Sequence record: OR757434.1
Source of the DNA: Escherichia phage vB-EcoP-XT18
Strand: one strand, 5' to 3'
Length of the DNA: 64,000 nucleotides
Below are positions 1,435 through 8,547 of the stretch, piece after piece (positions within the stretch are counted from its first letter, which is position 1; each line of letters begins with the position of its first letter). Both the position numbers and the translations under genes were made by a program. Under the pieces are notes generated by a model, which saw only the letters and a list, made by a program, of their open reading frames with translations, did no database searches and was not told where the DNA came from.

Positions 1435-2796
1435 ATGATTGTTATCCCGATTAACCAAATTGAAGATAAGGTTGCTCAACAACCCGATATCACTGTTGGT
1501 CGTCATTTCATTGAACAGTTGATTAACAACAACTTGGTTCCAGACGGTATCTGTCCCATCATTACTGGTGGGGCTGTTCGTGATGCTGTTATTAATAATA
1601 CAGCTCCGCACGACATTGATATCTTTATCGTCAGAGGGCAAACACCAAGAACACAAAACACTTTCACTTCAGTGGGCCGTTGGCAAGCTCTTGGGAGTGA
1701 ACTTGAAAGCAATGTGAAAGAGTGGCTTGAGTCACAAGATATTGAGTATTCATCTCTTCTTGCTGAAGCTACAGATGAGCCATACGCAGGGACTTCTCGA
1801 TTAACATTCACTGATATCATTGAATTTCAGTGGCATGGAACGCGAATCCAATTCATGTTTAACTATCCCACCTCTATCGAAGAGGTTCTAGATAATTTTC
1901 CTATGATGTGTCGTGGTGCTATGACTCTTGATAAGCTATTCATGACCATTCATGGATATTTGGCTATGACTTCTCCAATTCCAGTGGTTGTGACTGATCG
2001 AGAGATTAAATATGTCCACAAGAAGTGGCCTAATTCACAGGTGCTAAGGTTCCAAACCCCGGGAGTTGCTTTTCATTATATGGCACATGCTCGGCAACAA
2101 CCCATACCTCAGATGGTCAGGGATCTGGTTAATAACCAAGGTCAAGTATATCTTATTGGCGACACAGCAAGTCCTCAATATTGTGTTGACCAAGACATGA
2201 GTCGATTCTTTGGAATCCCTTATGAAGAAATTCAGTTAATGTCAAGTGTTAATGGATCTAGTCGGATTAGTGCGTATTGGTCTGAAGGGTTGACAAACCT
2301 GACAACTAACACAGGAGGAGATCTCCTTGGTCGGGAAGAAGAACCTAACCGACACAATGCAATTGAAGGGGTTTTTGTAGCCCCTGCAATGCGCCGAGCA
2401 CAAGAGTCACGAAATCTAAGCTCTACTCGTAGAACATCTTTTGAAGAAACTCTTGGTGTTACTAGCGATTCATTTGAGCGGTGGTTGTCTAGACGTTCTA
2501 ATGGTCAATCAAATGGTTTGACTGTTAGCCGTCACCAGTTCTCTGGTCAGAGTTTAGCTGTTGGTGATAGCAACGCACCTGTTATGGCTGTGTGGACCGA
2601 TGAAGGTGTGGCCCAAGATGTGGTAAGTAGTCTTGATGTCCCTTCTCATGGTGAATTAGCTGAGACCGTCAGCCGCAATCTCGCTGATCGGTTTGTTGCT
2701 AACAACCCTGAAGTATTAGAGCCTCAAACCCGTACAGTTCGGTTTGCCGATGAAGCAGGTCGTGGAATCTCTTTTGACATGGAAACAAACAACTAA
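1435..2796 (+). CDS. Pol-beta superfamily nucleotidyltransferase, CCA-adding enzyme / poly(A) polymerase-like head domain
   Basis: GGAVRD followed by HDIDIF matches the class II tRNA nucleotidyltransferase signature; C-terminal half is S/T/R-rich and looks disordered; start ATG overlaps the exo-domain stop. Confidence 0.55.
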   Translation: MIVIPINQIEDKVAQQPDITVGRHFIEQLINNNLVPDGICPIITGGAVRDAVINNTAPHDIDIFIVRGQTPRTQNTFTSVGRWQALGSELESNVKEWLESQDIEYSSLLAEATDEPYAGTSRLTFTDIIEFQWHGTRIQFMFNYPTSIEEVLDNFPMMCRGAMTLDKLFMTIHGYLAMTSPIPVVVTDREIKYVHKKWPNSQVLRFQTPGVAFHYMAHARQQPIPQMVRDLVNNQGQVYLIGDTASPQYCVDQDMSRFFGIPYEEIQLMSSVNGSSRISAYWSEGLTNLTTNTGGDLLGREEEPNRHNAIEGVFVAPAMRRAQESRNLSSTRRTSFEETLGVTSDSFERWLSRRSNGQSNGLTVSRHQFSGQSLAVGDSNAPVMAVWTDEGVAQDVVSSLDVPSHGELAETVSRNLADRFVANNPEVLEPQTRTVRFADEAGRGISFDMETNN

Positions 2797-2805
2797 GGAA
2801 TAAGA

Positions 2806-3339
2806 ATGAGTTTACTAGGAAGTGTTGAACTGCATGATGTAATTGACAATGGCTATCTGGATGCGGAGCATAAGTATGTTAACGCTGCTAGTGTGGATAT
2901 CCGTATTGGTGATACTATCCTTGTTGAAGAACAGGCTGATGGCATCGTTGATATTGATGCGAAAGAGAATCTTCAGTGGAAGGAAGTAAAAATCCCTGAA
3001 GAGGGCTTGGTTATCACTCCGGGTCAGTTCTTCTTGGCTCACTCTATGGAGGAGTTTAATCTTCCAGATAACATCTCAAGTCTGTTTGTTCTGCGTTCGT
3101 CTATGGCTCGTTGTGGTTTGAACCACCTTCACGCCGGTTGGGCAGATGCAGGATTTAATAGCAGTAAGCTGACATTTGAATTCCATAACGTAACCAAGCA
3201 CCACAGTTTACGAGTTCGTGCTGGTATGCGTGTTGGTCAGATGGTGATGTTTGAGCACTCTCATGCAGGGGAACATTCCTATGCAGTGAAGGGGCGTTAT
3301 AATAACTCTGAAGGTGTAGTTGCATCTAAAGGTGTGTAA
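2806..3339 (+). CDS. dcd: dCTP deaminase
   Basis: ASVDIRIGDT, RSSMARCGL and YNNSEGVVASKG align by eye with E. coli Dcd motifs. Confidence 0.8.
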   Translation: MSLLGSVELHDVIDNGYLDAEHKYVNAASVDIRIGDTILVEEQADGIVDIDAKENLQWKEVKIPEEGLVITPGQFFLAHSMEEFNLPDNISSLFVLRSSMARCGLNHLHAGWADAGFNSSKLTFEFHNVTKHHSLRVRAGMRVGQMVMFEHSHAGEHSYAVKGRYNNSEGVVASKGV

Positions 3340-3546
3340 ATGACTGAAGAAGAGTTCCAAGAACTGAAAGGTTTGACTACCGAGGTTCAATTAAAAGCTA
3401 TGACATTTGGTCGAGCATGTCATCAATTTGATATATGCGTCGAAAGCAGTAAAGAAGCTTGTAAGAGCTATATGGATAAGAAGCACCTTGAATGGGGTAA
3501 AGCCTCTAACGATCTTTATAACTATATGAAGGGTTTAGTAAAATGA
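3340..3546 (+). CDS. hypothetical protein
   Basis: ORF in operon context. Confidence 0.4.
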   Translation: MTEEEFQELKGLTTEVQLKAMTFGRACHQFDICVESSKEACKSYMDKKHLEWGKASNDLYNYMKGLVK

Positions 3547-3740
3547 AAAAGTGGATTGTTCGTGTACATGATGATATGACTGGAGACTTGGTAGCTGTAG
3601 ATTTTATTAACACTCGAGAACACGCCCGTAGGGTCAAAAACCAATACAAGTCTACTTTTAGACTCAATAAGGTTACAATAGGAAAAGCTATTGTGAATAA
3701 CGAAGGTGCTCTTTTTGCCAACAGCAAGGTTTATTATTAA
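3543..3740 (+). CDS. small basic protein, paralog family A member 1
   Basis: shares W..V...TR.EAR..KK...VYY pattern with 3740-3949, 3959-4159 and 6501-6710. Confidence 0.45.
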   Translation: MKKWIVRVHDDMTGDLVAVDFINTREHARRVKNQYKSTFRLNKVTIGKAIVNNEGALFANSKVYY

Positions 3741-3949
3741 TGAGACCAATCACTATGAGACAGTTTTGGTTAGCAAAGATTAAGTGGGCATCAGGTGGTA
3801 TGACTATGACTGCACTTCCTACTCGTCAACAGGCTCGAGATTTTAAAAAGACTATGCTTACTGGTGACGTGGTCAATAGTATCAGTATCCATAAGGCCAA
3901 GGAGTATTCTTCTGGTCGTGTTTATATCAGCGGAAAGGTACATTACTAA
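3740..3949 (+). CDS. small basic protein, paralog family A member 2
   Basis: paralog pattern, ends VHY. Confidence 0.45.
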   Translation: MRPITMRQFWLAKIKWASGGMTMTALPTRQQARDFKKTMLTGDVVNSISIHKAKEYSSGRVYISGKVHY

Positions 3950-3958
3950 TGAAAAAAG

Positions 3959-4159
3959 ATGTGGGCGATTCGTGTTGTTTGGGATCTTGATCAACACACG
4001 AGAAAAGATAGCATCAAATTGTTTGACACTCGCAAAGAGGCTCGTATTGCTAAGAAACAGTTGAAGACTCTGGGCACAATAGTAAAAAGCGCTGATATAC
4101 ATCGCTGGTACGAAGACCCTAACTCGGGTTCTTTTATGTCTAAAGTAATTTATTACTGA
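3959..4159 (+). CDS. small basic protein, paralog family A member 3
   Basis: paralog pattern, ends VIYY. Confidence 0.45.
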   Translation: MWAIRVVWDLDQHTRKDSIKLFDTRKEARIAKKQLKTLGTIVKSADIHRWYEDPNSGSFMSKVIYY

Positions 4160-4183
4160 TTGGTAGTAGATATGGTAACTCTC

Positions 4184-4192
4184 AAATGTATA
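4184..4192 (+). promoter_or_regulatory. AAATGTATA, variant of the recurring TAATGTATA putative phage-sigma promoter motif
   Basis: motif about 40 nt upstream of the 4232 start. Confidence 0.3.
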
Positions 4193-4231
4193 TAGAGTAC
4201 AATAAGAATTTGTATTTTACAGGAGAGAGTT

Positions 4232-4558
4232 ATGTTAGATTTGAGTAAAGTGGCCCCGCCCACTGAAGAGATTACAAAATCCAAGGTGATGCAACAGTTT
4301 TATCATCGTGATATGCTTGGTCGCTTTATCAAGAATCGTGATGTTGTTGCTTGGTCTATTGGTAATCAAGGATATCTGTTGAAGGTTCTTCAGGTTACAG
4401 GTTCAACTGCTAAGCGAGTTAAGGTGTATGACCCTGAAATGGGGCGTTCTAAGTCAGTAGACCCGCAGAACTGCATCGTAATTACCCAGCAGGTGATAGC
4501 AAATCTAGAAAGAAATGTAGCAAACTCTACTGAGTTAGAAGGAGAAGACCCTAAGTGA
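4232..4558 (+). CDS. hypothetical protein
   Basis: ORF with GGAG-type RBS. Confidence 0.45.
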   Translation: MLDLSKVAPPTEEITKSKVMQQFYHRDMLGRFIKNRDVVAWSIGNQGYLLKVLQVTGSTAKRVKVYDPEMGRSKSVDPQNCIVITQQVIANLERNVANSTELEGEDPK

Positions 4559-5049
4559 TTCCAAAGGAATTGGAAGGGAAGATTGATGTAACAGAGGATG
4601 GTAGAGTATTTACTATAAAAAGTGGAAGGTTTTTAACCCTCCACACTAATGGTGCCTATTACAGAGTTACTATTTACTTTCCTGAAGGATTAAAGAATTT
4701 CTATGTCCACAGGCTGGTTGCTAGTAAGTACATACCGAACCCTGATAATCTTCCATGTGTCAACCATAAGGATGGCAATAAACTTAACAATCATAAAGAT
4801 AATCTTGAATGGTGTACCCACCGAGAAAACTCTCAACATGCATCATCATTAGGTCTGATGGTACAGAGGTTTGGAGAAGACAATCCGCAGTCTAAACTTA
4901 CTCTAGAAGATGTAGAGTACTGTAGGAGAGTTTATATCCCTCGAGATAAAGAGTTTGGAGGCTCTGCCCTTGCAAGACGTTTTGGTGTCTCTCAGCAAGT
5001 GATATCAAAAGTTCTACTTAATCAAACTTGGAGGGAATATAATGCATAA
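4555..5049 (+). CDS. HNH homing endonuclease with C-terminal HTH
   Basis: VNHKDGNKLNNHKDNLEWCTHRENSQH; paralog of 41312-41824. Confidence 0.8.
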   Translation: MIPKELEGKIDVTEDGRVFTIKSGRFLTLHTNGAYYRVTIYFPEGLKNFYVHRLVASKYIPNPDNLPCVNHKDGNKLNNHKDNLEWCTHRENSQHASSLGLMVQRFGEDNPQSKLTLEDVEYCRRVYIPRDKEFGGSALARRFGVSQQVISKVLLNQTWREYNA

Positions 5050-5605
5050 GAATGTTTTTGATTTACCTGAGATTGGTCGTGCCGAATATAATATGTTAGA
5101 CCGATCAGAGCTTTCAATCTCTCGCCTTGAAACAATGCAGGGTATGATTAGTGGAAACAGCCTAGAACACATCCTGAGCTGCTTACAAGCTAACATAGAA
5201 CTCTTGCATATCAAAGCTAAAAACTACCATTGGAACGTCTCTGGTGCAGGATTTCAGGGTGTTCATGGTATGTTTGATGAGCTGGAAGATTACGCACGAC
5301 AAGTAGGAGATCGTATTGCTGAACGTATGCGTTACCACTGTGTTAAAGTGGACGCCACAGCAGCCAATTATCTCTCCCATGCTTGGTTCTCAGAGGGTAA
5401 TGCTGACCTAGATATGGACGGTATGCTCTCTGATATGTGCATGACCTTGATGTGTATTATTGAGAAGATGGATGAGTTTGATGGTGATTTAGCCACTTAT
5501 CCAGTTGATCAGAGTATGCTTCAAGAAATTAATGAAGGTCTTGGCAAGTATTGCTACTTCGTCAAGAGCAACATGTCCCACTCAAGTGGCGATGTGTCTT
5601 ACTAA
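5042..5605 (+). CDS. Dps/ferritin-like protein
   Basis: KNYHWNVSGAGFQGVHGMFDELEDYARQVGDRIAER resembles the Dps core HWN..G..F..H..F.E....D.IAER. Confidence 0.6.
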   Translation: MHKNVFDLPEIGRAEYNMLDRSELSISRLETMQGMISGNSLEHILSCLQANIELLHIKAKNYHWNVSGAGFQGVHGMFDELEDYARQVGDRIAERMRYHCVKVDATAANYLSHAWFSEGNADLDMDGMLSDMCMTLMCIIEKMDEFDGDLATYPVDQSMLQEINEGLGKYCYFVKSNMSHSSGDVSY

Positions 5606-5666
5606 AAACCTCCGCCCTGTCTCCTAACCCGAGGTGGGGCGAACTTATTTATAAGGATATAGATAT

Positions 5667-5846
5667 ATGTTATCAGCAATCGTATGGGGTATTTGGGCTG
5701 TCTTTATTGGTGGTGGTATCTATTGGGCTTCTGGCAAGCTTATTGAAGAAACTCCTGACAAGAAAGGTGAGATTCAAACAGCATCAACCATCATGGTTGT
5801 CGTAGCTGTTGTTATCCCATTCCTGCTTCACCTCCTGACTGCATAA
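5667..5846 (+). CDS. small membrane protein (59 aa, below the ORF-track cutoff)
   Basis: ATG with AAGGA RBS; two hydrophobic segments; the overlapping track ORF 5551-5805 is in another frame and less plausible. Confidence 0.4.
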   Translation: MLSAIVWGIWAVFIGGGIYWASGKLIEETPDKKGEIQTASTIMVVVAVVIPFLLHLLTA

Positions 5847-5855
5847 GGGTTTGAT

Positions 5856-6041
5856 ATGATTTCACTGATTGTGTGGGCCGTGTGGTCGTTAATAGTTGGT
5901 ACTGTTATATATAAAGCTCGAAATTTAGCAATTAAAGAAAACCCAGCAGAAGAGGATGTTAAAGCTATCAAGCTAGGCAGTGTTGTTCTGGTACATTTTG
6001 CTATAACACTACCTCTTGTTATTATTCTTTGTATGCTATAA
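5856..6041 (+). CDS. small membrane protein
   Basis: two hydrophobic segments; similar to 5667-5846. Confidence 0.4.
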   Translation: MISLIVWAVWSLIVGTVIYKARNLAIKENPAEEDVKAIKLGSVVLVHFAITLPLVIILCML

Positions 6042-6231
6042 GGAAACCAAAGAGTGAAACTAAACCTACCTGAAGAATTACAAGCACATGCCATTATCGT
6101 TAGTGGCTGTGTGATGGGTCTTGGTCAAACAAAGAAGATTGCTCATGACTTAGCAAAAGGTCAGTATAAATCTTTTATTGTTGTTCCTGCTACCCAACGT
6201 CATATCAACCTGTTTATTAACAAGGAATAGA

Positions 6232-6504
6232 ATGTCTAAAGTGATTAAGTTTTATAGCGATCAGTGTGCTCCATGTAAAGCAATGGCTCCTACCTTTGAG
6301 AAGGTTGTTAAGGAGTTCGATGTAGAAGTAGAAGAGATTAACATCCTTGAAGGTGATGGTCGTGAACAAGCTGTTAAGTATGGTGTAAGAAGCATCCCTG
6401 CTTTCGTTGTACCTGACCGTAATAGTGGTGCACACTATAGTCTCTCTGGTATGCAGACCGAAGCAAACCTGAAAGCATTCTTAACTACTGCCCTAGGTGT
6501 TTGA
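6232..6504 (+). CDS. thioredoxin-like protein
   Basis: CAPC active-site motif in thioredoxin-fold context; ATG at 6232 has an RBS, track start 6178 is probably too far upstream. Confidence 0.65.
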   Translation: MSKVIKFYSDQCAPCKAMAPTFEKVVKEFDVEVEEINILEGDGREQAVKYGVRSIPAFVVPDRNSGAHYSLSGMQTEANLKAFLTTALGV

Positions 6505-6710
6505 TTATGAAAAAATATTGGACGGTGGTATATTACCTCTACCAAGACCCGGCTATACCTGTTACAGAGCACTTTGCTACTCGTAAAGATGCTCGCCGTT
6601 TTAAGAAGGCTCTTAAGATGTCTCCAAAGATTTATAGTAAAGTAAGCTTACATAAATCAACATTGTCAGAGAAGGGAACCTTAGTGGTTTGTTATGTAAA
6701 AGAATATTAA
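6501..6710 (+). CDS. small basic protein, paralog family A member 4
   Basis: TRKDARRFKKAL...VKEY pattern. Confidence 0.45.
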   Translation: MIMKKYWTVVYYLYQDPAIPVTEHFATRKDARRFKKALKMSPKIYSKVSLHKSTLSEKGTLVVCYVKEY

Positions 6711-6725
6711 TAAGGAAATTCACGG

Positions 6726-7217
6726 ATGAATGATATTGATCCATCAATAAAAGAAGCTCTTGATTATGACCCTTTGACTGGAGATTTCCGATGGGTTAAA
6801 ACTTATGGAAAAGGGCGCAAAGGGTCTATAGCTGGTTCTATAAATACCAACGGGTATTTGAGAATCGTTTATAAAGGTGTTAGGTATTATGCTCATCGAC
6901 TTGCTTACTGGTGGGACACTGGATTGCTTCCTGAAGAAGTGGACCATGTAGACCGCAACAGACTAAATAACAAAAGAGAGAACCTTAGAGGGACTACTAG
7001 GTCAGGGAATGGACTCAACAAAATAGCCCAAAGTAACAACTTATCAACCGGAGTGATTGGAGTAACTCTTCATAGAAGGAAAAGTGGCTCTATTGCTTAC
7101 CGGGCGGTATTCAAATCTAAGCACATAGGACTCTTCTCAACTATAGAAGAAGCCTCTAAAGCATATAATAAAGTCAAGGAGACTTATATAAATGACAATC
7201 AAAGCTTCACTAATTGA
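6726..7217 (+). CDS. HNH homing endonuclease
   Basis: VDHVDRNRLNNKRENLR HNH core. Confidence 0.75.
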   Translation: MNDIDPSIKEALDYDPLTGDFRWVKTYGKGRKGSIAGSINTNGYLRIVYKGVRYYAHRLAYWWDTGLLPEEVDHVDRNRLNNKRENLRGTTRSGNGLNKIAQSNNLSTGVIGVTLHRRKSGSIAYRAVFKSKHIGLFSTIEEASKAYNKVKETYINDNQSFTN

Positions 7218-7839
7218 TAACTTCGGTTCCGACCTTACTGTGGTCAATGCTGCTCGTGTGACTATGGGGGTAGAAAGAGAGGAGTTGAAAGAAAGTGATA
7301 CTCGGCTTATTAACTTCCTAGCTCGAGAGCGACACGTAAGCCCTTTTCGCCACCCACAAGCTAGCTTCAGATGCGAAGCCCCTATAGCAATTGCACGTCA
7401 GCTACAGAAGCATCAAGTTGGTTTTTCTTGGAATGAGATGAGTCGTAGATATAAAGATGGAGCAGTGGATATTTTTATACCTAAAGAAATCTTCTCTCGC
7501 CCCGATGATCTACATTCGGGTTCTGGAACACTCCTTGAAGGAGATGAAGAGGTAAAGGCTTTAGCTTTGTTTAACTCTGCATATGAGGCATCTCTTGCTA
7601 GTTATGATGAATTAATTAAGTTCGTAGCTCCTGAACAGGCTAGATTTGTTTTACCTCAAGGTATGGTAACTACTTGGTACTGGACTGGTTCTTTGTATGG
7701 CTGGTTTGAGTTGTGTCGTCAGCGACTATCCTCCCATGCTCAGTATGAAGTTCGAGTGTTTGCTCAATCTCTGGATGAAGAGATGGCTAAACTCTACCCA
7801 ATCTCGTGGGCAGCTCTGAAGAAAACTTTGGAGAGTTAA
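7192..7839 (+). CDS. thyX: FAD-dependent thymidylate synthase (ThyX-like) with variant active-site motif
   Basis: by-eye alignment to ThyX (VNAARVTMG, SHAQYE); canonical RHR-x7-S appears as KHQ-x8-S. Confidence 0.7.
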   Translation: MTIKASLIDNFGSDLTVVNAARVTMGVEREELKESDTRLINFLARERHVSPFRHPQASFRCEAPIAIARQLQKHQVGFSWNEMSRRYKDGAVDIFIPKEIFSRPDDLHSGSGTLLEGDEEVKALALFNSAYEASLASYDELIKFVAPEQARFVLPQGMVTTWYWTGSLYGWFELCRQRLSSHAQYEVRVFAQSLDEEMAKLYPISWAALKKTLES

Positions 7840-8024
7840 TGACACATAAAGTGTGTAGCTTCTGTAAGAAAGAGAAGACTATCATCAACTTCAAACCTAA
7901 TCCTGTAACTGGTCTGTCTCATGTTATGTGTCACTCTTGTAGGATATATCTTGAAACAAAGCACACCATTAACAGGTTGCATTATTATCACCCAACAACA
8001 TTCAAATTTAAGGTTGTTAAATGA
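7839..8024 (+). CDS. small zinc-ribbon protein
   Basis: CSFC...CHSC; ATG overlaps the thyX stop. Confidence 0.4.
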   Translation: MTHKVCSFCKKEKTIINFKPNPVTGLSHVMCHSCRIYLETKHTINRLHYYHPTTFKFKVVK

Positions 8025-8224
8025 AAACATTATGGACTCTTGACTGTCAAGATGATGACGGAGAGCGTTGGACTTGGAAATATTTCCTAGGGAAACCAAC
8101 ACCCGAGAACCCTGCTTTGGATTGTGCTTCATATGAAGATGCTAAGAAGCTGGTAAATGGAGAAAAGGTTTGGTCTCCGGATAATGAAGTTCAGTACTTT
8201 TTAACAGAACGGAAATTTTCATAA
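8021..8224 (+). CDS. hypothetical protein
   Basis: ORF, translationally coupled. Confidence 0.4.
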   Translation: MKTLWTLDCQDDDGERWTWKYFLGKPTPENPALDCASYEDAKKLVNGEKVWSPDNEVQYFLTERKFS

Positions 8225-8547
8225 TGATTGACGGTAATACATTTAGGACTTCAAATGGAAGTGAAATAAGTCCCGCTGAAGTGATTAATCGGCACAGAAG
8301 GCAATTGATCATCCATTCCTATTTGTATTACTGGTTGGATGACCCTATCTGGTCTGATGATAAATGGCAACAAGTTGCTAACGATTTGGTTGAGTTGCAA
8401 GCCTTGTATCCAGAGCCTACCGGAGTCTTTGACAATGAGTTCAAAGATTGGGATGGTTCTACAGGGATGCATCTCCCACATAACGAAGCTGTTGCTTGTA
8501 TGGCGACAGCTGTTTACAGACTTCATAAAGAGGTTAACTTCGCATGA
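8224..8547 (+). CDS. hypothetical protein
   Basis: ORF. Confidence 0.45.
   Translation: MIDGNTFRTSNGSEISPAEVINRHRRQLIIHSYLYYWLDDPIWSDDKWQQVANDLVELQALYPEPTGVFDNEFKDWDGSTGMHLPHNEAVACMATAVYRLHKEVNFA

Follow-up and report, generated by a model that had tools for sequence, protein, structure and literature searches.

The gene at positions 5042–5605 of the analysed window, the whole 64,000-nucleotide stretch from Escherichia phage vB-EcoP-XT18 (OR757434.1), is, as judged by its sequence and a predicted structure, a genuine member of the Dps family with a putative ferroxidase site of the Dps type. Its product is probably a true Dps mini-ferritin that would sequester iron with peroxide during phage replication. 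The source of the window is a phiEco32-like Kuravirus, and the Dps-family identification, although correct, is not new: the orthologue in phiEco32 has been annotated in this way since 2008 and at least two phage genome papers mention the protein, so that naming the family adds nothing to the record. The gene and its ribosome-binding site are as follows.

5042..5605, forward strand: dps-family mini-ferritin gene (ATG start, stop codon included; 187 aa, 21.2 kDa, pI 4.7)
5030..5034, forward strand: Shine-Dalgarno sequence GGAGG, 7 nt before the dps ATG, read from the sequence

Family assignment of the phage protein

The product of 5042..5605 scored 30.7 bits against PF00210 (Ferritin), compared with a gathering cut-off of 24.5 (E 3.5e-7), in an alignment that spans residues 55–109 only, and every one of its homologues carries a precomputed PF00210 domain. 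The Dps family of mini-ferritins is catalogued as PF00210 in Pfam and as IPR002177 in InterPro. It matched phrog_3636 (4e-55) over residues 35–180. With phmmer, the PDB yielded 61 matches at E values up to 10, of which 60 belong to the Dps family (best E 2e-9), with alignments covering residues 51–176, and a profile search collected 3351 Dps-type proteins at E <= 1e-3. P0124 (1156 aa), which gave 20 partial profile matches, was rejected as a low-complexity repeat artefact with spurious Pfam hits. The sequence-only reading had proposed a phage-encoded Dps/ferritin-like protein and named a profile search against the Dps/ferritin family as a check; that search gave the significant Dps matches listed above (PF00210 and PDB), and the proposal was borne out at the levels of sequence, profile and fold. 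Profile match and gene position together place the protein in the PHROG 3636 clade of C3 prolate podophages.

The relationship to the host protein is distant. E. coli Dps chains were among the weakest PDB matches (phmmer E ~0.09), and the score against the NCBIfam Dps equivalog NF006975 was 35 bits, far under its cut-off of 114, indicating that the phage protein is no orthologue of host Dps. Recent capture of a host dps gene was rejected on these two results and on the big bit-score gap between the phage clade and cellular Dps; the low identity to cellular Dps and the equivalog score instead point to an old gene of the phage lineage. A classical ferritin or bacterioferritin was likewise rejected. 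These 24-mer maxi-ferritins share the four-helix-bundle superfamily and PF00210 with phage Dps, but their intrasubunit di-iron site, composed of a Glu and two ExxH motifs, is absent from the phage protein, whose single ExxH (E53-H56) is on helix A, helices B and D being devoid of the motif, and the 50 best fold matches listed were all Dps-family. A degenerate or pseudo-enzyme was dismissed as well, since the ferroxidase ligands are invariant and dN/dS is 0.03–0.08 against phiEco32 and SU7; the gene is under purifying selection.

Predicted fold and ferroxidase centre

The AlphaFold2 model (pLDDT 88.8) places helices at residues 41–65 (A), 71–98 (B), 107–112 (BC), 125–146 (C) and 154–176 (D). 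This four-helix bundle, with a short BC helix in the long B–C loop, has the Dps topology, as the structure prediction suggested in the earlier reading was intended to check. The 50 best Foldseek matches listed from the PDB were all Dps or Dps-like proteins, with rmsd values of 1.1–1.6 Å over ~135 residues and target-normalised TM scores up to 0.92 against Dps structures. M. smegmatis Dps2 (2z90/4m35), B. anthracis Dlp-2 (1jig), S. aureus Dps (2d5k) and E. coli Dps (1dps/6gcm) show the same bundle and short BC helix at 1.1–1.6 Å; cellular and phage Dps are only 20–27% identical. The putative active site lies in one contiguous segment.

5228..5326, forward strand: ferroxidase-centre segment, residues 63–95, containing H63, W64, H75, D79, D90, E94 and R95

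The core motif of this segment reads HWNVSGAGFQGVHGMFDELEDYARQVGDRIAER. In a gapless alignment, H63/W64/H75/D79/D90/E94/R95 have the same spacing as H51/W52/H63/D67/D78/E82/R83 of E. coli Dps, and six of these residues (H63, W64, H75, D90, E94 and R95) do not vary among 56 Dps sequences from phages and cells. H63 falls on helix A, H75 and D79 near the start of helix B, and D90 and E94 further along helix B. The inter-subunit ligand set and its spacing equal those of cellular Dps, and both have a Trp beside the first His and an Arg following the Glu. The sequence-only reading had described the core as HWN..G..F..H..F.E....D.IAER; every residue that it named is present, but its dot spacing was approximate, with two residues between F71 and H75 where there are three and four between E80 and D90 where there are nine. 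Proper alignment retained the metal-ligand residues (H63, H75, D90 and E94). R95 (E. coli R83) and the arrangement of ligands at the two-fold interface are conserved, and by analogy with cellular Dps the ferroxidase site would form between subunits at that interface, within a presumed hollow dodecamer of 23 symmetry, for which these two conserved features give indirect support.

The acidic positions in the pore region of E. coli Dps are not conserved in the phage protein. Residues D141–143 and D146 of E. coli Dps, which we take to line the iron-entry pore region, align with Y153, P154, V155 and S158, while D144, E145, D147, D149 and D156 of the phage protein lie in the same loop and helix start. 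With the pore positions differing and other acids nearby, iron entry may differ from that in E. coli Dps. The composition also differs, with 5 Cys and 14 Met in phage Dps and 0 Cys and 4 Met in E. coli Dps.

Distribution among phages

The gene had been regarded as an unusual cargo, a view that the distribution refutes: among the C3 prolate podophages sequenced, dps belongs to the conserved core of middle genes, and its conservation there and its Dps annotation since 2008 mean that it is no odd cargo. Full-length matches (>=80% of the protein) were found in 97 phage records, all from phages of E. coli or Shigella that are of the Gordonclarkvirinae type; the lineages of Salmonella 7-11, Proteus Privateer, Cronobacter GAP52/009 and Aeromonas LAh have diverged copies. 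phiEco32 gp67 (ABY52868.1 / YP_001671812.1) and SU10 CDS67 are orthologues, 97–98% identical over all 187 residues (phiEco32 gp67 97%). The phiEco32 gene occupies the same genome position and is followed by the same downstream hairpin, and its product differs from the window protein at five amino acids, four of which lie within the N-terminal extension. The GenBank note on gp67 has read "member of the Dps family" since 2008; database entries label Kuravirus Dps 'DNA-binding protein'. The protein is discussed in the SU10 and Privateer papers, and the former reports that CDS67 has a DPS domain and was found in all five C3 phages then sequenced.

The Dps proteins of the non-Kuravirus C3 phages (Privateer QIN94861, 7-11, pSal-SNUABM-01, GAP52/009 and LAh) belong to the same phage clade at 32–45% identity and score 140–150 bits against the profile, compared with <=82 bits for cellular Dps. 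They share the ligands, the dNTP-cluster context and the gp68-like upstream partner with the window, but are 146–156 aa long, the long N-terminal extension being absent; in three of the four, the short N-terminus is net positive. Dps-like proteins also occur in other phages, namely Lactobacillus plantarum myophages/LP65, the gut 'Gratiaviridae' and 'Flandersviridae', Bacillus phage G (gp346) and Synechococcus S-SRM01. These have likewise been proposed as protectants against oxidative or iron damage, and the Lactobacillus phage gene adjoins DNA-metabolism genes, as in the window, yet they are distant (13–27% identity) and represent independent acquisitions in unrelated phage groups.

Gene neighbourhood and transcription

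The dps gene lies between primase/helicase, exonuclease and dCTP deaminase genes on one side and thioredoxin, ThyX, ligase, PhoH and DNA polymerase genes on the other; by these flanking genes, the location inside a replication module given in the sequence-only reading holds. The immediate surroundings contain the following elements.

4184..4194, forward strand: promoter-motif match AAATGTATATA, one mismatch to the phiEco32/SU10 phage-sigma motif tAATGTATAtA
4232..4558, forward strand: gp68-like small protein, 108 aa (phrog_10984, 1.8e-62), conserved upstream partner of dps
4555..5049, forward strand: HNH homing endonuclease, 164 aa (phrog_59, 1.2e-46; PF13392, 7.1e-9)
5613..5641, forward strand: G+C-rich hairpin, then a T-rich tract, immediately downstream of the dps stop codon

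The gp68-like protein gave no Pfam or NCBIfam match. Its homologues (33–72% identity) are encoded directly upstream of dps in phiEco32, SU7, Privateer, LAh_6 and the metagenomic contigs L008–L010, and in all of these the two genes overlap at start and stop. Judging from the overlaps, dps is translationally coupled to the gp68-like gene in most of the related lineages examined, which is a new detail. In the window, the HNH gene is inserted between the two and overlaps each by a few bases. Such an insertion at this junction is rare, being present in only two of the 81 related phage records (XT73 and ManiMatter_Bas94) and absent in phiEco32, from which the window, XT73 and Bas94 differ in having dps separated from gp68.

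The motif at 4184..4194 precedes the gp68-like start by 38 nt. It is likely a middle promoter driving the gp68-like, HNH and dps genes; the SU10 paper places a sigma70 promoter and the tAATGTATAtA motif upstream of CDS68. Across the window, the phage-sigma motif was found 30 times against 27.8 expected, not above chance, so its position alone supports the promoter assignment. A sigma70 promoter scan of 2500–8500 yielded fewer matches than shuffled sequence and was therefore uninformative. The hairpin at 5613..5641 has an 11 bp stem with 7 G-C pairs (-15.5 kcal/mol, z = -2.3), its sequence is identical in phiEco32, and it resembles a terminator- or attenuator-like element.

Wherever dps was found in these phages, it lies among dNTP-synthesis genes (dCTP deaminase, thioredoxin and ThyX, with NrdD in some lineages), a further new detail. 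This constant position could be read as a sign that the protein is an iron reservoir or chaperone for nucleotide-metabolism enzymes and not a detoxifier. It would then buffer iron for dNTP synthesis, for example for the Fe-S activase of anaerobic ribonucleotide reductase, with regulation possibly exerted through neighbouring ATP-cone proteins. In Aeromonas LAh_6, nrdD and nrdG are no more than 2.5 kb from dps, and in contigs L008 and L009 nrdD is ~2.6 kb away; a stand-alone ATP-cone protein is encoded directly downstream of dps in Privateer, 7-11 and L010, and an ATP-cone-annotated gene follows dps in LAh_6. The window, in contrast to Privateer, 7-11 and LAh_6, has no ATP-cone gene there, and NrdD, NrdG and ATP-cone proteins were not seen in the annotated early and middle regions of phiEco32 or beside dps in the window. 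No iron enzyme was identified among the dps neighbours, ThyX being a flavoenzyme, and we know of no established function of Dps in releasing iron to client enzymes. We regard the reservoir role as quite improbable and prefer peroxide-driven iron sequestration.

Proposed function

In the sequestration model, dps would be transcribed early in the middle operon with the gp68-like gene, inside the dNTP-synthesis and replication cluster, and its product, by homology, would form a hollow cage of 12 subunits. At each two-fold interface, a ferroxidase site is predicted to arise where H63 and H75 of one subunit meet D90 and E94 of its neighbour. This site would oxidise Fe2+, preferably with H2O2, and deposit Fe3+ within the cage, so that one reaction would remove both Fenton reagents while the phage DNA replicates. 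General Dps chemistry has been reviewed (PMC8999374).

Phages of the phiEco32 type are expected to silence sigma70 transcription in the host; according to the SU10 paper, a phiEco32 protein inhibits the sigma70 holoenzyme. Under such a shut-off, the infected cell could not induce its own peroxide response (dps, thioredoxin/glutaredoxin and catalase), and it is therefore likely that the phage supplies Dps and thioredoxin itself, from promoters of its own. In a different enterobacterium, lytic infection leads to strong induction of the host's dps, catalase and peroxiredoxin (PMC7354516). Mass spectrometry in the SU10 study recovered six peptides of CDS67, the most among the middle proteins. The ferroxidase activity, its physiological benefit and its link to host shut-off are what we infer for the window protein; the Privateer authors call the function of their Dps unverified, and the literature searched contained no shown function for a phage Dps, whether of the C3 clade or any other.

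N-terminal extension and DNA binding

The main departure of the window protein from its cellular relatives is at the N-terminus.

5042..5173, forward strand: N-terminal extension, residues 1–44, clade-specific to Gordonclarkvirinae

Conserved MHxNxFDLP and SxxRLExM motifs flank a variable middle, and a helix is predicted with low confidence at residues 19–37. The extension evolves faster than the core (dN 0.057 against 0.003 in comparison with phiEco32), and Privateer, 7-11, LAh_6 and pSal-SNUABM-01 have a Dps without it. It holds 1 Lys, 3 Arg and 7 acidic residues, for a net charge of -3, whereas cellular Dps has a Lys-rich tail at this place; the N-terminal 21 residues of E. coli Dps, for comparison, carry a net +3. 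As read from the sequence, the replacement of a lysine-rich DNA-binding tail by an acidic 44-residue extension in Gordonclarkvirinae is another new detail. A start at M18, as in shorter phage homologues, was judged unlikely, since the Shine-Dalgarno sequence precedes M1 and the first nine residues are conserved in the clade; mass spectrometry of SU10 detected the full 21.2 kDa CDS67 product, which also counts against it. The conserved 44-residue extension and the coupled gp68-like partner find no explanation in a simple ferroxidase model.

Flexible Lys/Arg-rich tails are the device by which Dps contacts DNA (PMC8999374), and the phage protein lacks the Lys/Arg-rich tail of the DNA-binding subgroup, which is typified by E. 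coli Dps and M. smegmatis Dps1/Dps2. Its overall net charge is -15 (pI 4.7), and the C-terminal tail, NMSHSSGDVSY, contains zero basic residues. With an acidic N-terminus and no basic C-tail, both known Dps DNA-binding devices are missing, and canonical tail-mediated DNA binding is unlikely in the Gordonclarkvirinae clade. Nucleoid compaction or DNA binding, one of the functions offered by the earlier reading, is thus the one least favoured by the sequence.

A role in coating DNA nevertheless has to be weighed. The cage, perhaps together with the gp68-like protein, would bind or condense phage or host DNA, shielding phage DNA from nucleases and restriction while still allowing transcription, or compacting the host nucleoid. 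Condensates of E. coli Dps and DNA keep out restriction endonucleases and admit RNA polymerase (reviewed in PMC8999374), and Gordonclarkvirinae are reported to show a remarkable resistance to restriction-modification systems, with no known mechanism (PMC11990801). The BASEL authors, however, ascribe this resistance to possible base modification by dCTP deaminase and a nucleotidyltransferase, not to Dps (PMC11990801). The Dps proteins of Privateer, 7-11 and pSal-SNUABM-01 have short Arg/Lys-rich N-termini with net charges of +2 to +3, whereas the window protein is strongly acidic in total, its extension has a single Lys and its C-terminal tail is devoid of basic residues. The gp68-like protein is predicted, with low confidence, to be an SH3/Tudor-like beta-barrel, a fold that often binds nucleic acids, but its AlphaFold model is poor (pLDDT 55.6) and the Foldseek matches, all SH3/Tudor-like, were not significant (best E 7e-3). 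DNA coating is accordingly an unlikely explanation for the window protein, though the least unlikely of the alternatives to iron sequestration.

Virion association

A further proposal, very improbable in our estimate, is that Dps is packaged in or bound to the prolate capsid, where it would shield the packaged DNA or accompany the genome on delivery. Mass spectrometry of CsCl-purified Privateer virions detected about ten proteins, the Dps homologue among them, a finding that a purely cytoplasmic role does not predict; a dense 250-kDa cage could co-purify, and an iron-loaded one would be dense enough to co-band with virions in CsCl. The Privateer supplementary files contain no Dps spectral counts. 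For SU10, the orthologue was seen in a preparation of concentrated phage, but 17 proteins that are clearly not structural, such as DNA polymerase, sigma factor, PhoH and thioredoxin, came from the same sample, which is therefore no clean virion proteome. The cryo-EM and proteomic study of SU10 assigns gp20–24 as head-internal ejection proteins and leaves Dps unmentioned. In BFVD, three uncultured-phage 'prohead protease' proteins (333, 432 and 763 aa) contain a Dps-like fold, suggesting that in some phages a Dps domain is directed to the inside of the capsid. In the window, by contrast, dps is a middle gene in the replication cluster, outside the late structural module, and the tail channel could not let through a folded 12-mer cage of ~9 nm.

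Combining the last two ideas, Dps and its coupled gp68-like partner might constitute a phage-specific nanocage, DNA-shielding or capsid-associated and not simply an antioxidant, to which we give a similarly slight probability. If so, the nanocage would coat incoming or replicating phage DNA or travel with the virion, keeping restriction enzymes out and letting RNA polymerase in, and would contribute to the unexplained broad restriction resistance of Gordonclarkvirinae. The acidic extension would then be a docking peptide for the gp68-like protein, the capsid or a replisome component, and not a DNA-binding tail.

Significance

Conserved across several prolate podophage families, dps is one of few middle genes of which this can be said, which implies a real fitness role. 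Such phages are often considered for phage therapy, and their resistance to host restriction is unusually high. The intact catalytic site, the acidic extension and the coupled partner gene offer concrete handles for a first functional study of the putative iron-sequestering protein. Many GenBank records mislabel the protein described here as 'integrase', and this label could wrongly flag these strictly lytic therapeutic phages as temperate.

Identity and fold of the phage Dps protein

The ORF at 5042..5605 on the + strand, located exactly by the sequence-only reading, starts with ATG, comprises 187 codons plus a stop and is preceded by GGAGG at 5030-5034, 7 nt 5' of the start codon. Its assignment as a Dps/ferritin-like protein was upheld by profile search, ligand alignment and fold prediction. 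The product exceeded the gathering cut-off of the Pfam Ferritin-like family PF00210 (30.7 versus 24.5 bits) and matched PHROG 3636 over nearly its full length (4e-55). A phmmer search against all PDB sequences returned 61 matches at E <= 10, all but one from the Dps family, the best being M. smegmatis Dps2, B. subtilis MrgA and B. anthracis Dlp-2 (E 2e-9 to 2.5e-8). Judged from sequence comparison, the resemblance to Dps is beyond chance, and membership of the family is virtually certain. This identification is correct, yet it was already on record, since the 2008 GenBank entry of phiEco32 describes gene 67 (ABY52868.1), an orthologue with 97.3% identity, as 'DNA-binding protein; member of the Dps family', SU10 CDS67 was reported to 'contain a DPS domain' (PMC4281155), and the Privateer paper noted Dps homologues in Kuravirus phages and called their function unverified (PMC7881722).

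The motif core quoted earlier lies at residues 63-95 (HWNVSGAGFQGVHGMFDELEDYARQVGDRIAER) with all its named residues present, although the spacing given by its dots was only approximate. Proper alignment of the product with 55 homologues, which span close relatives in phages and cellular Dps of 22-30% identity, retained the metal-ligand residues, with H63, W64, H75, D90, E94 and R95 invariant. Against E. coli Dps (167 aa), H63/W64/H75/D79/D90/E94/R95 correspond without gaps to H51/W52/H63/D67/D78/E82/R83, the residues in and around the inter-subunit ferroxidase centre. The acidic residues found in E. coli Dps around the iron-entry pore are not kept position by position, and other acidic residues lie nearby.

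The AlphaFold2 model from the 56-sequence alignment (mean pLDDT 88.8) displays the Dps topology, with helices A (41-65), B (71-98), a short BC (107-112), C (125-146) and D (154-176). The best 50 Foldseek matches listed against the PDB were all Dps or Dps-like proteins, the closest superposing with rmsd of 1.1-1.6 Å across ~135 residues. A classical ferritin was rejected, as the product lacks the two ExxH motifs. Because the product reached only 35 of the 114 bits set as the cut-off of the NCBIfam enterobacterial Dps equivalog and E. coli Dps was among its weakest PDB matches by phmmer, these scores mark it as a Dps-family member rather than a copied host gene.

Distribution and selection among C3 podophages

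In DNA sequence the window is 93-99.8% identical to E. coli podophages of the phiEco32 type, and its relatives belong to Kuravirus, subfamily Gordonclarkvirinae, with prolate C3 heads; the closest, vB-EcoP-XT73 and XT32, encode a 100% identical Dps protein. CDS67 was one of only eight middle genes that the five C3 phages sequenced by then all had in common (PMC4281155). By tblastn of sequenced phages, dps was found in 138 records. Full-length copies come from 97 records, of E. coli and Shigella phages of the Gordonclarkvirinae type; the gene is diverged in Salmonella 7-11/SE131, Proteus Privateer, Cronobacter GAP52/009 and Aeromonas LAh phages, and matches in Streptomyces and Synechococcus phages are weak.

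Profile search of 1.84 billion proteins yielded only seven 50%-identity representatives at E <= 1e-30. The top tier was a tight clade of 170-196 aa on phage-sized contigs (>220 bits), followed by a second tier of 144-172 aa (125-160 bits) including Salmonella phage pSal-SNUABM-01, and scores fell sharply for cellular Dps (<= 82 bits). The dN/dS of dps was 0.077 versus phiEco32 and 0.029 versus SU7, the N-terminal 44 residues being far less constrained than the core. On such sequence evidence, phage dps is a distinct clade under selection. The literature searched yielded no demonstrated function for Dps of this clade or of any other phage.

GenBank labels the orthologue of Escherichia phage IME267 (P0005) 'integrase', and many other Kuravirus records place a feature of that name where the Dps match falls (H1, H2, H11-H16, H20 and others). 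This naming is apparently a propagated annotation error, which could falsely mark lytic therapy-candidate phages as temperate.

Gene organization and expression signals

Features around dps in the window
2806..3339, + strand: dCTP deaminase gene
3543..3740, 3740..3949, 3959..4159 and 6501..6710, all + strand: four paralogous small ORFs, 65-69 aa
4184-4194, + strand: candidate promoter, phiEco32/SU10 promoter motif with one mismatch, 38 nt 5' of the gp68-like start
4232..4558, + strand: gp68-like gene, phrog_10984
4555..5049, + strand: HNH endonuclease gene, exactly between gp68-like and dps
5613-5641, + strand: hairpin, 11-bp G+C-rich stem and then a T-rich tract, directly after the dps stop
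5667..5846 and 5856..6041, + strand: tandem pair of hydrophobic paralogues, 59 and 61 aa, each assigned to phrog_9296
6726..7217, + strand: second HNH homing endonuclease gene, between thioredoxin and ThyX

Genes in relatives
Privateer (L004): gp68-like 3139-3423; ATP-cone 3898-4194
Salmonella 7-11 (L005): gp68-like 1897-2163; ATP-cone 3911-4210
Aeromonas LAh_6 (L006): gp68-like 3109-3462; ATP-cone 3929-4201 (annotation only)
Metagenomic contig L008: gp68-like 3681-4001
Metagenomic contig L010: gp68-like 3720-4001; ATP-cone 4469-4765

The gp68-like gene (phiEco32 gp68, 90-117 aa) lies directly 5' of dps in relatives. In phiEco32, SU7, Privateer, Aeromonas LAh_6 and three metagenomic contigs its stop codon overlaps or adjoins the start of dps; Salmonella 7-11 is the exception, with the two genes apart. 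The upstream proteins checked in these lineages are homologous to each other, with a conserved core (YHRDML.R.IK..D.V.W) and C-terminal part (IVIT.Q..AN.E.NV), and have no Pfam or NCBIfam match. The poor AlphaFold model (pLDDT 55.6) hints at an SH3/Tudor-like barrel of five strands with a helix after it, its fold matches being SH3/Tudor-like only and all non-significant. The gene is conserved in all C3 podophage lineages examined and usually translationally coupled to dps. The HNH insertion between the two is shared by 2/81 related records (XT73 and ManiMatter_Bas94), and the two HNH homing endonuclease genes break up the conserved middle-gene cluster in the window.

At the position equivalent to the candidate promoter, the SU10 authors described a good sigma70 promoter and a phage-sigma motif (PMC4281155). 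The hairpin (-15.5 kcal/mol, z = -2.3) is identical in phiEco32. With the promoter motif 5' of gp68-like and the hairpin 3' of dps, these genes probably head the middle transcription unit, in which partial termination after dps may occur. Mass spectrometry detected the SU10 orthologue at its full-length mass with six peptides, the most of any middle protein.

N-terminal extension and DNA binding

Gordonclarkvirinae-type Dps carry a 44-residue N-terminal extension, conserved at its ends (MHxNxFDLP and SxxRLExM) and variable in the middle, predicted by AlphaFold2 with low confidence to be partly helical. Lys/Arg-rich tails mediate DNA binding in Dps of E. coli and mycobacteria (PMC8999374). Such tails are absent at both termini of the window protein, since the acidic extension (net -3) contains a single Lys, basic residues are missing from the C-terminal tail and the whole product has a net charge of -15 (pI 4.7). 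In contrast, Dps of Privateer, 7-11 and pSal-SNUABM-01 are shorter, with Arg/Lys-rich N-terminal stretches (net +2 to +3). The database label 'DNA-binding protein' is a homology transfer that the sequence of the window protein does not support.

DNA coating or anti-restriction by Dps is unlikely. E. coli Dps condensates shut out restriction enzymes and not RNA polymerase (PMC8999374), and Gordonclarkvirinae resist the restriction-modification systems that the BASEL authors tested, by a mechanism left unexplained (PMC11990801), but the product is devoid of any basic tail and its sole candidate helper, the gp68-like protein, was not reliably modelled. The same authors suspect DNA modification by the dCTP deaminase and a nucleotidyltransferase encoded just upstream of the dps locus (PMC11990801). 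Residual interest resides in the non-canonical acidic extension and the conserved coupled partner gene.

Proposed role in infection

Peroxide-driven iron sequestration by a Dps cage during infection is the best explanation and, on our analysis, a probable one. Dps in general oxidise Fe2+ with H2O2 and store Fe3+ (PMC8999374). By homology, the product would form a 12-subunit cage with ferroxidase sites at the two-fold interfaces, which would oxidise Fe2+ preferentially with H2O2 and deposit Fe3+ inside, removing both Fenton reagents. Lytically infected cells of a related enterobacterium strongly induce dps, catalase and peroxiredoxin (PMC7354516), indicating peroxide stress in infection, and because phages of the phiEco32 type inhibit the sigma70 holoenzyme of the host (PMC4281155), the infected cell would be unable to mount that response. 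Next to its dNTP enzymes the phage encodes both Dps and thioredoxin. The NADPH-oxidase side activity of flavin-dependent ThyX yields H2O2, which would add a local peroxide source.

The dps neighbours are constant in the lineages examined (primase/helicase, exonuclease, dCTP deaminase, thioredoxin and ThyX), and in some an anaerobic ribonucleotide reductase or stand-alone ATP-cone protein adjoins dps too. These nrdD/nrdG and ATP-cone neighbours would suit an iron reservoir for nucleotide enzymes; however, none was seen in the annotated early and middle regions of phiEco32 or beside dps in the window, including directly 3' of the gene, and this role is very unlikely.

A virion-associated Dps is the least probable role weighed, and a highly improbable one. 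The Privateer homologue is among ~10 proteins found in CsCl-purified virions (PMC7881722), and 'prohead protease' proteins of uncultured phages in BFVD have a Dps-like fold (A0A6J7XDU5, 333 aa; A0A6J7WIS1, 432 aa; A0A6J7WPK9, 763 aa). Together with long multidomain proteins bearing Dps domains (P0215, 406 aa, Ferritin + DUF6321; P0183, 777 aa), they hint at the delivery of a Dps domain into the capsid by certain phages. Yet a dense iron-loaded cage could co-band with virions, the SU10 mass-spectrometry sample was full of non-structural proteins, and the SU10 cryo-EM study gives gp20-24 as internal proteins with no mention of Dps.

Small neighbouring genes

In non-Kuravirus C3 phages, a stand-alone ATP-cone protein of ~98 aa is encoded directly 3' of dps; that of Privateer (PF03477, 2e-20) is annotated 'ribonucleotide reductase'. 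The phrog_9296 pair, probably small membrane proteins, sits 3' of the terminator-like hairpin in the window, whereas phiEco32 has one annotated ORF (gp66) in that interval. The 65-69-aa paralogues, with 25-29% identity to the first (3543..3740), have in common a Trp close to the N-terminus, the motif TR..AR..K and a C-terminal Tyr; three stand in tandem just 5' of the gp68-like promoter and one after thioredoxin.
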